From NCBI GenBank assembly GCA_028909515.1, contig GCA_028909515.1_4811.1: 64,000 bases of DNA. One strand, 5' to 3'. The notes beneath the pieces are model-generated. The model did no database searches. It had not been told where the DNA came from and was given only the letters and a program-made list of their open reading frames with translations. Every line of letters starts with the position of its first letter. Within the stretch, counting starts at the first letter, position 1. Of the stretch, positions 11,648-17,951 are shown one piece after another. Position numbers and translations under genes: made by a program. This stretch comes from a phage.

Positions 11648-13069
11648 TTATTCCCCTTTCAACCAAGCTTCAAATGCTTCGTCAGTTGCTGCAGAATCCG
11701 CAGCGGCCTTTTGTTTTGCGACTACACGCTGTTTTTGACCGTGTTCAACGCCGCGCAGATAGTTATCCACCACGTCAAACTCAGCACCATCAACGCACTT
11801 CAAGCCTAACTTTTTAGCGCCATATTTCGCTACGGACTTGGAATCCATAGTTGCATGATCAAAGGCACCAACAACTTTAGACAGGCGCTGGTAGAGGCTA
11901 TTCTTACGAGCAGAATCAGCGTAGAAAGCAGCAACTGCTGAATCAGATGCCATTGAGTGTTCCCCTTTTGCTGGACCTGGCGACGCTTTCGCCGCTTTTG
12001 TCGGTTTGTCATCTTTTTCGACCGAAGCCCCCTTTACGTTGCTGTTTTGCAGGCCGCTAACCACATCTTCAGCTTTGTCGCAAGGTGATACATCTTCAGC
12101 CTTGACTTCAACTTCTTCTTCGTCTTTGACTTCGGCTTCAACTTCTTCTTCATCACCTACCGCGCCACCTTTCAGTTTTGCAATAAGCGCTTCGATTTGG
12201 CTGATCAATTGCGGAAGTTCGCCGCCAGCGTGAGATTCAGTTTCAACTTCAAACTTCTCTTCACCTTCTGGGGTTTCTTCTGCTTCTGCCTTGACTTCTG
12301 GATCAACCATTACTTCTTCACGATTTTCGGTTGAGTCCTTCTCTTCTGCTTTCACTTCAACTTCATCCTGATGAGCAGCTTCAGTGCTCTCTTCGTTCAG
12401 AAATTGTTCGAGCGCAGGGATCAGTGATTTCAGCTGTTCAACAGCATTATCACGCGCTTTACCTTTTAACGGTTTTGGCATGTCTAAATCCTCGTTGGAT
12501 GGTGTTACAGTCGTCAAACAAAGATGGTCAAAGCAACGACCATCCAGCACCCGTGCACCTGGTACTCGACCAACGTCCACGAGAGCAATGTGGTTGCCGC
12601 GAAGAGTTGTCTGCACCACTTCATACGGCTGCCCGTCAAACTCTCCAGACTGTATGATGAATTCACAGTCATAGCCCAAAGACAAGTCAACCTTTCCAGA
12701 ATCGATGGCCTTCTTCAGACGACGGCTAAACACTTTAAGGTCGCCGCGCATCCATGGCTTGTCATAATAAACATTGCCAGTCAGAACGCCATCAACGCCA
12801 TACTCTTCGGGTGCTGTGTTATCCTCATCACCTTCAAATCCAGAAAGCATTTCGTGATTGTCGATGAAAGGGATATTTTTGAATGAATCTATCGCTTCGG
12901 GGTCTTTCACCGCTGACTCAGGGCGATAGACTTTTACGATGCGATTCGGATCACCATCAAGACCAACTTGACCAGCAGAATAATCAAAAATGCCAAATGA
13001 CGAAATTGGACAACCCATAATCGTCAAGAATCCATTTTTGTCAATTTCGCGTGCCGTTTGCATTCGCAT
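11648..13069 (-). CDS. scaffold protein, possibly fused to an N-terminal prohead-protease-like domain
   Basis: 473 aa; globular N-terminal ~190 aa, then long acidic helical region ('EEVEAEVKDEEEVEVKAED'); positioned before decoration and capsid genes. Confidence 0.55.
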   Translation of the reverse strand: MRMQTAREIDKNGFLTIMGCPISSFGIFDYSAGQVGLDGDPNRIVKVYRPESAVKDPEAIDSFKNIPFIDNHEMLSGFEGDEDNTAPEEYGVDGVLTGNVYYDKPWMRGDLKVFSRRLKKAIDSGKVDLSLGYDCEFIIQSGEFDGQPYEVVQTTLRGNHIALVDVGRVPGARVLDGRCFDHLCLTTVTPSNEDLDMPKPLKGKARDNAVEQLKSLIPALEQFLNEESTEAAHQDEVEVKAEEKDSTENREEVMVDPEVKAEAEETPEGEEKFEVETESHAGGELPQLISQIEALIAKLKGGAVGDEEEVEAEVKDEEEVEVKAEDVSPCDKAEDVVSGLQNSNVKGASVEKDDKPTKAAKASPGPAKGEHSMASDSAVAAFYADSARKNSLYQRLSKVVGAFDHATMDSKSVAKYGAKKLGLKCVDGAEFDVVDNYLRGVEHGQKQRVVAKQKAAADSAATDEAFEAWLKGE

Positions 13070-13632: not shown

Positions 13633-14646
13633 TTAGTTCAGCTTAATTGCGGTGATCTGTCCGTAAACGGTAGATGTCAACGCGTCGGTGCACTGATAGT
13701 TTAAATACACATTACCAGGCGCGGCAAGAGTAATTACTTTTGTTGGGATGTTGCCGCCGAAGCGACCTGCAGCCCGAATGCCAGCTGACATGGCAAATGC
13801 ATCATCCGTAATATCTGAATTGCTTGTTGACAATTTGACTGTAATTCCGGTATTCGCTTGAACGCCTGCTGTCGCGACAGTCAACTGACTTGCTGTTACA
13901 AGCCATTTCCCTGCAGGAAGGTTTAAGGTTGCCAGATTGACCAAAGTTGTTGGAGGATTGCTGACGCTATTAGTGGCATTCTGGACGGTACTTGCTGCTG
14001 CATTAAGCACACCAGACCCATCAATTGATAGAGTTGTACCGACCTTTACGCCGCCTAAAGTAGATGCTGAGGCAATCGGCAATGAGTATTGGGTGACGCT
14101 GATTGTTCCATCGCCTGCGACGCTTATTCCGGTGCCTATTTTGACGCCACCAAGAACGGAGGCTGTTGCCGCTGGTAACGTGTATTGGTTGCCGCTGGTT
14201 TTCACAACTTTGACCGCGACAGCGTTTTTCGACCCTCCAGACTCCATGCCTATAATCACTGCTTCGCCAAAAGCAATGGTGATTGTTGATGCAGTCAAGC
14301 CAGTTTGAACGTCTGTGATGTTCATCTTAGGCACAGACAATGTCAGGTTAGGCTTGCTGGTCGAATCGCCATCATTGCCAATCATAAAGAATTGACCTAC
14401 TGAGTTATACCCTGATGCAAGCGGCGGGCTCAGTGGAACAATCAAGTTTTTATCAGAAGTGAATTCTGAGACAATTGCCAAGCCATTAGCATACACTGCA
14501 GGCAAGACTGGAGTTTGTCCAGATAGAGGGAATGTGTTGATTGGTATCGTCATAATGACCTCAGATAATTGGTATTTTCCTGCATTTGCAGTGTATTGCC
14601 CATCCAGGAGGACCGATGTCACCCTTTTTGAACTTAAGTTCTCCAC
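13633..14646 (-). CDS. structural protein with phage tail-fibre-type repeats
   Basis: 337 aa; two internal repeats 'Y(T/S)LP(A/I)A(T/S)AS(V/T)LGGVK(I/V)GT' typical of fibre proteins; sits between head-morphogenesis and scaffold genes. Confidence 0.55.
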   Translation of the reverse strand: MENLSSKRVTSVLLDGQYTANAGKYQLSEVIMTIPINTFPLSGQTPVLPAVYANGLAIVSEFTSDKNLIVPLSPPLASGYNSVGQFFMIGNDGDSTSKPNLTLSVPKMNITDVQTGLTASTITIAFGEAVIIGMESGGSKNAVAVKVVKTSGNQYTLPAATASVLGGVKIGTGISVAGDGTISVTQYSLPIASASTLGGVKVGTTLSIDGSGVLNAAASTVQNATNSVSNPPTTLVNLATLNLPAGKWLVTASQLTVATAGVQANTGITVKLSTSNSDITDDAFAMSAGIRAAGRFGGNIPTKVITLAAPGNVYLNYQCTDALTSTVYGQITAIKLN

Positions 14647-15412
14647 CTACTTCCCATAAGCGTTTGTCATCAAGCTTGAATCTCATGCCGTCGACGTGCT
14701 CATGTGATATTCGCGGCTCTTTGCCTGCTCCTGAATGCGCCCACTCAAATTCCTCAACGCCATTCTGTCGCATCCTTTCATCACTTAATACGCAATAAAG
14801 TTTGCTCGTTTGGTCTTTGGCGATAAGGTCTACGCGTTTTGCAGAGAAGTGTTTTACATTCCTTAGTGCCGCCTGAATGCCTGACGTGCCTTGTTGCGCT
14901 GGGTCTGGCGAAGTCAGCGAAAGCATCACCGCTTCGTACACCCTGTTGTGAATATCTTCGCCAACCTTAGTCACTAAAGTCGTGTTGAACGTCTCGCTTG
15001 TTTTAAGAGTGTTCTCAACGAATTTATTATATGTGGCTTTTGGCGCTTCTATTCCTGCAGATTTAAGACTTGCAAATGTAGCAGAAGTGGCACCCTTTTC
15101 AACTGACTTGATGAAATCTGCGGCAATCTTTGACCCGACACGGGCGAAAGCCTTTGCCCATTTCAGTTGCAGTCGCTTCATCAAGGTCTGAAAAGTTGAA
15201 TCAGCAGAGTCTTGCGCAAAGAACTTTTTAACCTGCTTCTTTTCAAGCCACTCAGCAATTCCTGCTTGATAGTCGTCAATCATCGCATAGCAAAGACCTT
15301 TCATCTCACGACGATAGGCCATCGCAATAGCATTGGATGGGATTATCGGACTGCCGCGCCCGATTCTATCGGGTGAGCGGCGTTCACGTTTTTTCGAAGC
15401 TTTAAAAGCCAT
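14561..15412 (-). CDS. head morphogenesis protein (Mu F / SPP1 gp7-like)
   Basis: C-terminal 'GWAIHCKCR' resembles the Mu F minor head protein motif; start set at 'MAFKASKK' (1 nt after portal stop); the ORF track allows an earlier start at 15475. Confidence 0.5.
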   Translation of the reverse strand: MAFKASKKRERRSPDRIGRGSPIIPSNAIAMAYRREMKGLCYAMIDDYQAGIAEWLEKKQVKKFFAQDSADSTFQTLMKRLQLKWAKAFARVGSKIAADFIKSVEKGATSATFASLKSAGIEAPKATYNKFVENTLKTSETFNTTLVTKVGEDIHNRVYEAVMLSLTSPDPAQQGTSGIQAALRNVKHFSAKRVDLIAKDQTSKLYCVLSDERMRQNGVEEFEWAHSGAGKEPRISHEHVDGMRFKLDDKRLWEVGGELKFKKGDIGPPGWAIHCKCRKIPII

Positions 15413-15413
15413 A

Positions 15414-17789
15414 TCAACCTTGCTTCGGTGAATTAGTAGGATTATTGAGTGCTCCATATGCTTGAGAGCAATCACCCTTCAACCACTCCTTGAATGAGTT
15501 TACATCCAATTCGTGAATTGAGTCGAAGCCGTTCCAACCGTTACCAAATGATGCTTGATAAGCTTCTTTCGCTTCTTCTGCTGAATCAAATCCAAGCATA
15601 CACTTGTGTTCATCAAATTCGCCAGAATAATTATCATTTTGGTTAATGATGAATACTTTAGGCGACTTCATATTTGGCCCAACAAAGCAGTCGACTTCAT
15701 CACCATCAGCACCCTTGGTGCCTTTGATGAATCCGTAGTGGTGCGGCATCTTAACTGCCCATTCACCATCAAGGCTGTTTCCCCTACGAATGCTGTTGCG
15801 AGGATTCTCAATACCAAGAATCATCCCGTGCAACTTCATCTTAGGTAGCGATGCGGCATCCATCTTCCCTACGTTGTGTCGCAAGTTGACGACATTTCCT
15901 TTTACGCTTGGAAGCGTGGACGGTTGCACCGACCTTGCATCTTTTTGAGGGTCAAAATCCACATCCTGACCTTCTTTAAGGTAATAGTCAGCAATACCCT
16001 CCAGACCTTCTTTCAGTTGCGTTAGGACATCAACGTGATGGCTTGATTCATCATCGGTATCATCCATGTTAATCTCAACTGGTGCTCTGTCAGGGTTTTC
16101 TGCCAACTCACCACGCGCGGCACCTTCCGGCATAATACCAGTTTCGCTGTAGAACTGGCCGCCCATCTTGACAACGTCAGCCTTAGCCTGTTCAATATCG
16201 GCCTTGCCTTGCAGAACTTCACCAGCAGACTTGCCAAGCAACGCCATATTCTCTGGAGACATCCCTGGGGTTTCTTCTGCCGCGTCTTCCGGCAAACGGT
16301 TGTAGCCACTGTTTTTGTCGTCCTTGATGCGGTCGCGCTCTTCATCAGGGGAGATGACGCCAGCATCAATGAGAGTCTTGCCAGTGTTCGCTCGTTTGTC
16401 GTTAATCTCTGCAAGCTGAGTAGCAGTAAGTGAACCAACTGGCTCCCATGCCACTTTAACGTCGACTTCAACACCTTCAGATTTCAAAAGGATTTTATAG
16501 TGACGGTCAAGAATCTTCGTCAAATCGTGCTGCTGACAAGTTTCCAATTCTTCGTGATAGCTGACCATTTCGAACTCACCAGTGGCGTTAAAGCCTTTAG
16601 GTGAAGTCCCTAACAGTTTTGTCGACGGAACTTTTGCGATTGCGGCCACCAACTGGTACTGGTTCATGATGATGCTGTCGAAGTCTGACAAGTTGATGTC
16701 AAACTGGTCCATCTCTTCTTTCTGACCAAGCACTTTTACCGCATAGTTGTCGCGGTACTTAATCCACATCATCAAACGTTCGGCAAACGACCGCTCATTG
16801 GCAATCGCCTTGTCAACGTCGGTCCGCAGCGTGGTTGTACGCTTAGACATCGCCAGCAATGGCGCTTCGTTAGCGGTACGTTCAGCGGCATAGATACGTT
16901 CATAAATCTGCTGAGTCAGAGGAATGCCGCCGTATATATAAGTCGGCTTGAGAATATCAGCTGGCTCATCGTTGCGCAAGATGATTAGGTGGCTGCGATG
17001 ATAACGCTGTCCACTGATCACCCAGTATTCTGGATCATAGAAATGCTGTGACGCAGGGTCTGCAGTGTTTTCAGACGTCAAGAATGGCATCATCCAATAA
17101 GGGTCAACCTGAATGATTCCCTTATAAGACCCCTTTGTCACACCATCGATGTTAAAAGGTTTGCTATAATATTCTGGGTCATCGCTGCGCACATCAAATA
17201 TGATGACACGGATGCCAAAAATATTCTTGAATCGTTCGGCTTCAACTAAGTGCTCTTTGATGTTAAATTCTTTATCAATTTGCTTCAGGCGTTCGCTTGC
17301 CTGCACAGACAATTCTGATTCAGAGCTTGATTTTACTTCCCAACCTTTACGTACTGCATCGCGGCCTACCATTGAGCAAGCCTTATTCACCAGCCAGTGC
17401 TGCGCGATAATTGCGCAAGCTTGATAGCCGATGAATGATTGTGACAAGTACCAGTTTTGCAACTGAATAGGGACTGTGTATGGATTCACCTGCCCTTCTG
17501 AACTGATGTTCTTCAAAGCATTATCCATAACTTTTTTGGATACGGTTGCTGAATCTACTGAGCGACCTTTGATGATTGCAACACCGTCTCCGTTGATATC
17601 AGGCTCATATAAAGGGAAGTCATCAACCGTTTTAAAGGTCGGTCGATTGCTTTCAGTCTTTTCCCAGCGTTGACCGCTGCCGCGCCTTTCAAGGCGTTCA
17701 AACGGTGCCAATGGGTCGCCTGGCGGCATCTCCGCTGGTTCGGCTTCTGGTTGCGTCTTCTCCCAGAGTTTTATGCCAAGAATTTTCAT
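15414..17789 (-). CDS. portal protein with C-terminal extension
   Basis: Large ORF immediately downstream of terminase; start set at 'MKILGIK' behind an AGGTGG RBS; last ~150 aa carry pyrophosphatase-like motifs (see findings). Confidence 0.7.
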   Translation of the reverse strand: MKILGIKLWEKTQPEAEPAEMPPGDPLAPFERLERRGSGQRWEKTESNRPTFKTVDDFPLYEPDINGDGVAIIKGRSVDSATVSKKVMDNALKNISSEGQVNPYTVPIQLQNWYLSQSFIGYQACAIIAQHWLVNKACSMVGRDAVRKGWEVKSSSESELSVQASERLKQIDKEFNIKEHLVEAERFKNIFGIRVIIFDVRSDDPEYYSKPFNIDGVTKGSYKGIIQVDPYWMMPFLTSENTADPASQHFYDPEYWVISGQRYHRSHLIILRNDEPADILKPTYIYGGIPLTQQIYERIYAAERTANEAPLLAMSKRTTTLRTDVDKAIANERSFAERLMMWIKYRDNYAVKVLGQKEEMDQFDINLSDFDSIIMNQYQLVAAIAKVPSTKLLGTSPKGFNATGEFEMVSYHEELETCQQHDLTKILDRHYKILLKSEGVEVDVKVAWEPVGSLTATQLAEINDKRANTGKTLIDAGVISPDEERDRIKDDKNSGYNRLPEDAAEETPGMSPENMALLGKSAGEVLQGKADIEQAKADVVKMGGQFYSETGIMPEGAARGELAENPDRAPVEINMDDTDDESSHHVDVLTQLKEGLEGIADYYLKEGQDVDFDPQKDARSVQPSTLPSVKGNVVNLRHNVGKMDAASLPKMKLHGMILGIENPRNSIRRGNSLDGEWAVKMPHHYGFIKGTKGADGDEVDCFVGPNMKSPKVFIINQNDNYSGEFDEHKCMLGFDSAEEAKEAYQASFGNGWNGFDSIHELDVNSFKEWLKGDCSQAYGALNNPTNSPKQG

Positions 17790-17951
17790 TGTTAACGCCA
17801 CCTGACAGTGAAAGGGAATCAATCTATATTATAAATATTCATGTGTTTGTAAGCAAATGATATGTATAGTAATCATAAATAGTTCATAAAATATTTTGCT
17901 TTTGTATCATTTTGAGTTATATTTTAGTTAACCAAACGAAAGGAGATTGAA

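Follow-up and report, generated by a model that had tools for sequence, protein, structure and literature searches.

We analysed a 64,000-nucleotide stretch of phage DNA (GenBank assembly GCA_028909515.1, contig GCA_028909515.1_4811.1; hereafter the window), concentrating on the portal protein gene on its minus strand and on the InPase domain, a family I pyrophosphatase-like barrel that forms the C-terminus of the portal protein. The portal gene region was 92–97% identical in nucleotide sequence to that of Escherichia and Shigella Wifcevirus phages (SP13, F13, Bas98-101, vB_Eco4M-7, Mansfield and FEC19), and judged by this identity the window is that of a Wifcevirus-type E. coli myophage. Wifcevirus phages are myoviruses of 66–72 kb and are recognised as distantly related to Pbunavirus, the PB1-like phages of Pseudomonas (PMC11990801).

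The true start of the portal gene is almost certainly the ATG at 17789, eleven codons into an open reading frame (ORF) of 802 codons that begins mechanically at TTG 17822. The protein is assigned a length of 791 amino acids (aa) because this ATG has an AGGTGG ribosome-binding site 8 nucleotides (nt) upstream and is equivalent to the annotated portal start in phage Mansfield. Residue numbers below refer to the 802-codon ORF unless 791-aa numbering is stated (ORF number minus 11). A Pfam search matched PF06381 (Phage_portal_3) at aa 133–479 (E = 4.5e-88, profile positions 1–353 of 357), PHROG 146 ‘portal protein’ matched the ORF with E = 7e-90, and the gene lies in the head-packaging module; in the collinear Mansfield genome the terminase large subunit gene is upstream of the portal, and MuF-like, protease and major capsid genes are downstream. 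PHROG 4660 (‘minor head protein’, profile length 765) covered the protein end to end with 1267 bits, and the two-domain protein is therefore itself a fixed family. Orthologues carry inconsistent names, among them ‘portal protein’, ‘minor head protein’, ‘hypothetical protein’ and ‘putative structural protein’, and that of Luteibacter phage Pluto is called ‘inorganic pyrophosphatase’.

A full-length AlphaFold2 (AF2) model was built on 79 orthologues, with a mean predicted local distance difference test score (pLDDT) of 73. As part of an explanation that we consider likely as a whole, the gene is read as five regions, namely a disordered N-terminus, a Phage_portal_3 core, a barrel helix, a variable linker of ~100 residues and an InPase domain of ~125 residues:

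15414..17822, minus strand: ORF of 802 codons, beginning at TTG 17822 (ORF listing)
15414..17789, minus strand: portal protein coding sequence, 791 aa from ATG 17789, with the TGA stop at 15414–15416
17484..17789, minus strand: N-terminal ~102 residues, predicted disordered (pLDDT below 50 at residues 1–102, 791-aa numbering; column conservation 0.27–0.42)
16386..17426, minus strand: Phage_portal_3 core, PF06381 (AF2 core 108–490, 791-aa numbering; column conservation 0.6–0.94)
16140..16256, minus strand: long C-terminal helix in the AF2 model, residues 512–550 (791-aa numbering)
15843..16139, minus strand: variable linker, residues 551–649 (791-aa numbering), with the lowest column conservation (0.23–0.47)
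15477..15845, minus strand: InPase domain (PF18823), minimised family-I-pyrophosphatase-like beta-barrel (Pfam aa 660–782)

The C-terminal InPase domain

We found that the C-terminal residues of the portal ORF match PF18823 (InPase) with E = 4.4e-46 and 156.5 bits against a cut-off of 26.8, over profile positions 12–135 of 135. A reading made from the letters of the window alone (the sequence-only reading) had placed an inorganic-pyrophosphatase-like extension at the end of the portal protein, and the occurrence of this profile and the portal profile in one ORF bears that out. The four strings on which it relied were all located, in the order it gave, at aa 670–759 within the last 150 residues, and two functional motifs fall in the same interval:

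15801–15815, minus strand: GIENP, aa 670–674
15726–15743, minus strand: HHYGFI, aa 694–699
15681–15707, minus strand: DGDEVDCFV, aa 706–714
15690..15707, minus strand: DGDEVD metal-binding signature, matching D65, D67 and D70 of E. coli Ppa in the hhalign, phmmer and PF00719 alignments
15603..15617, minus strand: FDEHK motif, with D, E and K invariant in 79 portals and 99–100% conserved in 155 representatives
15546–15593, minus strand: GFDSAEEAKEAYQASF, aa 744–759

Structure comparison pointed the same way. An AF2 model of aa 645–802, built on a 13-sequence alignment, had a mean pLDDT of 83.7, with 96 residues at a pLDDT of at least 90. The best 50 Foldseek matches to this model in the PDB were all family I inorganic pyrophosphatases (E from 1e-4, template modelling (TM) scores 0.4–0.5), and these enzymes ranked first in both PDB libraries, with modest scores; both a family match and, for the predicted structure, a fold match were thereby obtained. 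In a viral structure library the top matches were phage proteins with an InPase domain, including the portal of Serratia phage MTx, and several were already titled ‘Inorganic pyrophosphatase domain-containing protein’. When the last 178 residues were searched against PDB sequences, the C-terminus of the Pa193 portal gp19 (9B41) was found with E = 1.4e-49, and the remaining matches were family I pyrophosphatases alone, all weak (phmmer E = 0.14–1.5, over YGxI...DGDxxD).

Several features that define the InPase family are found here: a type I pyrophosphatase-like oligonucleotide/oligosaccharide-binding (OB) fold catalytic barrel, the metal-coordinating acidic residues (E672, D706, D708, D711, D737 and E738), and a virion-associated, polyvalent or portal-fusion context, in this case fusion to PF06381 in the head module, with BcepF1.124 as an orthologue. 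In the full-length AF2 model the barrel (residues 650–771, 791-aa numbering) was predicted with a pLDDT of 88–97, and its column conservation was 0.5–0.84. In a codon-by-codon comparison with Mansfield, where synonymous divergence (dS) was about 0.5, the ratio of nonsynonymous to synonymous divergence (dN/dS) was 0.006 in the portal core, 0.022 in the linker and 0.011 in the InPase domain, the last reflecting 2 amino-acid changes and 31 synonymous differences. The InPase domain is under strong purifying selection.

These results support the sequence-only reading in its essentials, namely that a compressed, family I pyrophosphatase-derived domain is fused to the portal C-terminus. The domain shares its fold and the YGxI and DGDxxD motifs with E. 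coli Ppa (PDB 1INO/4UM4, PF00719), but has ~125 residues where E. coli Ppa has ~175, and the spacing between the equivalents of E20 and Y55 is 24 rather than 35. The intervening segment thus lacks 11 residues relative to E. coli; a short hairpin is still present there in the AF2 model. E. coli Ppa is also a free hexamer, whereas the portal domain is tethered.

Two further observations concern the limits of the domain. At its N-terminal edge (nt 15846–15890) the portal-fused clade has LPKMKLHG, and the Pfam model matched only from position 12; the motif G-N-Y-x-K-G, which is conserved at the start of ~80% of InPase domains from other architectures, including those of the polyvalent proteins, is missing from the portal clade. 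An internal start that would yield a free InPase protein was considered and rejected: at the sole candidate, Met654, a GGGAAG abuts the ATG and is too close to it, and Met654 is unconserved beyond Wifcevirus.

Comparison with the classical active site

The E. coli Ppa sequence used as query was verified to be identical to PDB 4UM4. Its active site comprises E20, K29, E31, R43, Y51, Y55, D65, D67, D70, D97, D102, K104, Y141 and K142. Aligning the InPase alignment with E. coli Ppa by hhalign gave E = 2.6e-5 over 23 columns, covering the MPHHYGFIKGTKGADGDEVDCFV segment, and a 156-sequence InPase profile run at low stringency gave E = 1.5e-6 and also paired IENP with IEIP and SIRRG with PIKYE. The classical profile was shallow, as the protein search with E. 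coli Ppa returned only homologues at least 82% identical, and hhalign was of low confidence outside the 23-residue core. Within these limits, the parallels with E. coli Ppa that had been drawn for HHYGFI and DGDEVDCFV were recovered by alignment, and that for GIENP by low-stringency hhalign only.

The fourth parallel was not supported. No significant alignment was obtained between the GFDSAEEAKEAYQASF helix and the C-terminal GWENAEAAKAEIVASF of E. coli Ppa, which phmmer paired once with a negative score, and hhalign placed the GFDSAEEAKEAYQASF helix against E. coli helix A instead. By the order of secondary structure elements, the GFDSAEEAK.../GWENAEAAK... parallel probably pairs non-equivalent helices.

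The family I signature is D-[SGDN]-D-[PE]-[LIVMF]-D-[LIVMGAC] (PROSITE pattern), and DGDEVDC at aa 706–712 fits it and aligns with DGDPVDV of E. coli. The D-x-D-x-x-D metal-binding signature noted from the sequence was thereby confirmed, its first and third Asp being 99–100% conserved. Residue conservation was scored separately for a set of 155 distant representatives, taken from 50%-identity clusters, and for the set of 79 portal orthologues:

E672, equivalent to E. coli E20: 100% in both sets
R679, equivalent to E. coli K29 (Arg here): 100% in both sets
Y696, equivalent to E. coli Y55: 100% in both sets
D706, equivalent to E. coli D65: 99% of the 155 representatives, 100% of the 79 portals
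D708, equivalent to E. coli D67: Asp in 94% of the 155 representatives, Asp or Glu in 77/79 portals
D711, equivalent to E. coli D70: 100% in both sets
Q728, no E. coli equivalent: invariant
D737-E738-H739-K740, equivalent to the E. coli D102/K104 strand: D, E and K 99–100%
Y755, E. coli equivalent uncertain: 99% of the 155 representatives, 100% of the 79 portals

The assignment of FDEHK as counterpart of the D102/K104 strand is probable and follows strand order in the AF2 model. Eight of the classical active-site residues have invariant or near-invariant counterparts, short of the complete set, and the equivalent of Y141 is ambiguous. From this pattern of conservation, the metal cluster and the attacked-phosphate site are kept, and the leaving-group phosphate site appears to be partly lost.

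Distribution of the fusion and its gene neighbourhood

An enzymatic domain fused to a portal had been thought unusual on first inspection, which proved mistaken. The fusion is already known: it was published in 2017 and is represented by a dedicated Pfam family, in PHROGs and in the names of some UniProt and GenBank entries. Iyer, Burroughs, Anand, de Souza and Aravind (J Bacteriol 2017) described InPase as a monophyletic offshoot of the type I pyrophosphatases in phage polyvalent proteins, reported versions fused to a portal domain, with BcepF1.124 named, and noted related InPase domains linked to NUDIX, GNAT and TmrB genes; they proposed that InPase is packaged and injected, and acts on a nucleotide-like substrate or in the clearance of inorganic pyrophosphate (PPi) (PMC5512222).

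An exhaustive HMMER search with the InPase domain returned 11,274 50%-identity clusters at E <= 1e-3 and 9,406 at E <= 1e-10, in proteins of about 130 to 6,421 residues, which is the pattern of polyvalent proteins. Searching with the whole portal, we found PF06381 and PF18823 together in 120/120 best homologues, down to 48% identity. These two-domain homologues include the portals of Burkholderia phages BcepF1, Maja and WTB, Pbunavirus NP3, Serratia phage Hera, Xanthomonas phage Carpasina, Pseudomonas phage tabernarius and Luteibacter phage Pluto. The portal-InPase fusion is ancestral to the whole Wifcevirus/Pbunavirus/BcepF1-like lineage.

Among individual relatives, BcepF1 gp124 (YP_001039808.1, P0307) has the same PF06381 and PF18823 layout and PHROG family and is 53% identical over 97% of the portal protein studied here, but comes from a Burkholderia host and another genus, has 862 aa and has a longer linker. 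The Pbunavirus NP3 portal (P0346) is ~52% identical over the full length, and gp19 of E217/Pa193 (PDB 9B41) is an orthologous portal with the same C-terminal domain. Five of the orthologous portals (P0016, P0298, P0301, P0352 and P0380; 1191–1321 aa, 50–53% identical) have a PF03496 ADP-ribosyltransferase exoenzyme domain, of the Alt/VIP2 type, after InPase; the portal C-terminus therefore carries more than one effector-type domain.

Outside portals, phage polyvalent proteins such as the DarB-like antirestriction proteins have the same PF18823 family and conserved residues and are virion-associated like the portal domain, whereas InPase is there one of 2–15 effector domains in a giant protein. 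By analogy only, the portal also resembles T4 Alt and MuF-fused effectors, where a carrier associated with the head or portal brings an enzymatic domain into the capsid interior; T4 Alt is an independent protein, freed by the prohead protease.

The genes that follow the portal on the minus strand belong to the same head module:

14561..15412, minus strand: MuF-like head morphogenesis gene, 283 aa (PF04233, E = 5e-7; PHROG 324 ‘head morphogenesis’, E = 3.5e-67)
11648..13069, minus strand: DUF2213 head maturation protease/scaffold-like gene (PF09979, E = 4.6e-35; PHROG 3778 ‘head maturation protease’, E = 2e-171)

The portal stop and the MuF-like start are one base apart (TGA-T-ATG, nt 15405–15420), an arrangement that suggests translational coupling, and the MuF-like protein has no extra effector domain here. 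The Mansfield counterpart of the DUF2213 gene is annotated as a capsid maturation protease. The DUF2213 protein itself has a long, highly acidic middle part rich in Glu, Lys and Val and resembles a protease-scaffold fusion. Between the MuF-like and protease genes, an ORF at 13633–14646 (minus strand) showed a weak match to a phi29-type head fibre (PF11133, E = 2e-6) and an internal duplication of ~30 residues (YTLPAATASVLGGVKIGTGISVAGDGTISV / YSLPIASASTLGGVKVGTTLSIDGSGVLNA); its product may be a head decoration or fibre protein, and its counterparts in relatives are annotated as hypothetical. Across the 64-kb window ARAGORN found 0 tRNA and 0 tmRNA genes and an Rfam scan found no family at the gathering threshold, while a promoter and terminator scan around the portal gene gave nothing relevant.

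Proposed placement in the capsid and proposed function

In the cryo-electron microscopy (cryo-EM) structures of E217 and Pa193, the portal was modelled from residue 94/97 to 528, and the last part modelled is a helical barrel that extends into the head. The first 93–96 residues were unseen, matching the disordered N-terminus predicted here, and residues 529–765, which span the InPase region, had no density and are absent from the discussion in those papers; in the Pa193 study only the first 93 residues were reported undetected. The E217 barrel refolds depending on DNA. Judged by position, helix 512–550 (791-aa numbering) of the portal studied here would be the counterpart of the E217/Pa193 barrel helix. 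With the barrel pointing into the head, twelve InPase copies per virion would hang inside the capsid on flexible tethers of ~100 residues unless they are cleaved, and the domains would be unseen in the cryo-EM of relatives because of these flexible tethers.

In the full-length AF2 model (791-aa numbering) the linker consists of a low-confidence stretch at 551–579, a confident helix at 580–603 (nt 15981–16052; predicted to be amphipathic, pLDDT 77–93) and a loop at 604–649, and the distance from the core end to the first catalytic Glu ranged from 128 to 178 residues among the 79 orthologues. An alignment excerpt showed a linker motif, R-[ST]-x-x-P-[SG]-[VT] ... PSV, with conserved Arg and Pro, ~35 residues before the InPase domain. 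Either this motif or the linker helix could be a candidate docking element or a candidate maturation cleavage site, and should the portal be processed, the DUF2213 protease would be the candidate enzyme.

We favour the reading that the domain is a capsid-interior, portal-tethered, Mg-dependent phosphoanhydride hydrolase of the InPase family, and taken as a whole we judge it probable. From the conservation of its residues across unrelated architectures, the domain would be a metal-dependent hydrolase acting on pyrophosphate or on a nucleotide derivative that bears pyrophosphate. Because of the polyvalent-protein and ADP-ribosyltransferase context, an InPase carried by the virion would be expected to work in the first moments of infection, either following release by proteolysis or after departure of the DNA.

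Several observations count against an active, delivered hydrolase. The match to PF00719 was local (aa 690–714, 25–26 residues) and reached 18.2 bits with the whole protein and 21.0 bits with the domain alone, below the gathering score of 23.5; the NCBIfam inorganic pyrophosphatase model likewise gave 18.3 bits against a threshold of 246. Because the PF00719 score is below the gathering threshold, the portal domain is, by sequence, placed in a sister family of PF00719 rather than with classical Ppa. At the residue level, E. coli E31 aligns with an invariant Gly, R43, Y51 and K142 are without conserved counterparts, and the position of D97 is Asn in 65/79 portals; given these losses, genuine pyrophosphatase activity may be weak or absent. 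The literature search found no assay of any InPase-family domain and no post-2017 paper testing InPase. Finally, the domain forms one covalent chain with the portal, which remains in the capsid, and no cleavage site or proteomic evidence of InPase release was found, the search of the literature on PB1-like virion proteomes having given nothing usable.

The alternative that survives best keeps the enzyme and changes its substrate. The domain would then act not on PPi but on an alarmone, or on an immune-signalling or immune-precursor nucleotide with a pyrophosphate bond, as an anti-defence effector and not as a metabolic helper, a reading that we consider possible, though clearly less probable than the hydrolase reading in its broad form. 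The residues lost include R43 and K142, which hold the leaving-group phosphate, and those kept serve the metal and the attacked phosphate, a pattern that a change of substrate would account for. InPase also co-occurs with ADP-ribosyltransferase on some portals and with the DarB-like antirestriction polyvalent proteins, and nucleotide-like substrates were suggested by Iyer et al. from the NUDIX, GNAT and TmrB links (PMC5512222). The argument is nevertheless purely inferential, and the assignment of lost residues depends on alignment outside the 23-residue core, where confidence is low.

A more specific form of this proposal, which we regard as speculative and somewhat less probable still, is that the tethered InPase is no housekeeping pyrophosphatase but a first-minute anti-defence enzyme that is cut off by the head protease or exposed as the DNA exits, enters the cell and destroys a pyrophosphate-containing nucleotide signal or precursor.

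It is unlikely, in our estimate, that the domain has become inactive in catalysis and purely structural, its barrel and acidic patch being retained only to hold Mg2+ in the head, or to hold the DNA backbone via Mg2+, with a possible role as plug, genome-end anchor or headful sensor on the portal barrel. Such a role would fit the missing counterparts of E31, R43, Y51 and K142, the location of the domain in relatives, where it adjoins the packaged DNA at the crown of the portal, the DNA-dependent refolding of the E217 barrel and the lack of demonstrated activity in the literature searched. However, the full set of metal ligands and the attacked-phosphate Lys and Tyr are retained, and the same residues are 94–100% conserved in non-portal InPase, in stand-alone and polyvalent proteins of 200–6400 aa. 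The residues are thus conserved across unrelated architectures, and a portal-specific structural role is therefore disfavoured. A fortuitous similarity within a C-terminal extension of low complexity, for which only the weak direct scores against classical enzymes (phmmer and PF00719) speak, was rejected as extremely improbable given the PF18823 match, the number of homologous clusters, the fold-search ranking and the dN/dS of the domain.

The portal-InPase fusion adds little as a discovery, and what remains of interest is the function of the domain. The domain is invariably present throughout a lineage to which the therapeutic PB1-like phages of Pseudomonas and the very fast-replicating Wifcevirus phages belong, and it is invisible in published virion structures. 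If the anti-defence proposal is true, the loss of the leaving-group site would reflect a change of substrate, and a virion-delivered enzyme class of >11,000 clusters would gain a function. The Wifcevirus isolates Bas98-101 of the BASEL collection can be propagated on engineered E. coli K-12, and the function of the putative portal-tethered enzyme is therefore now genetically tractable.

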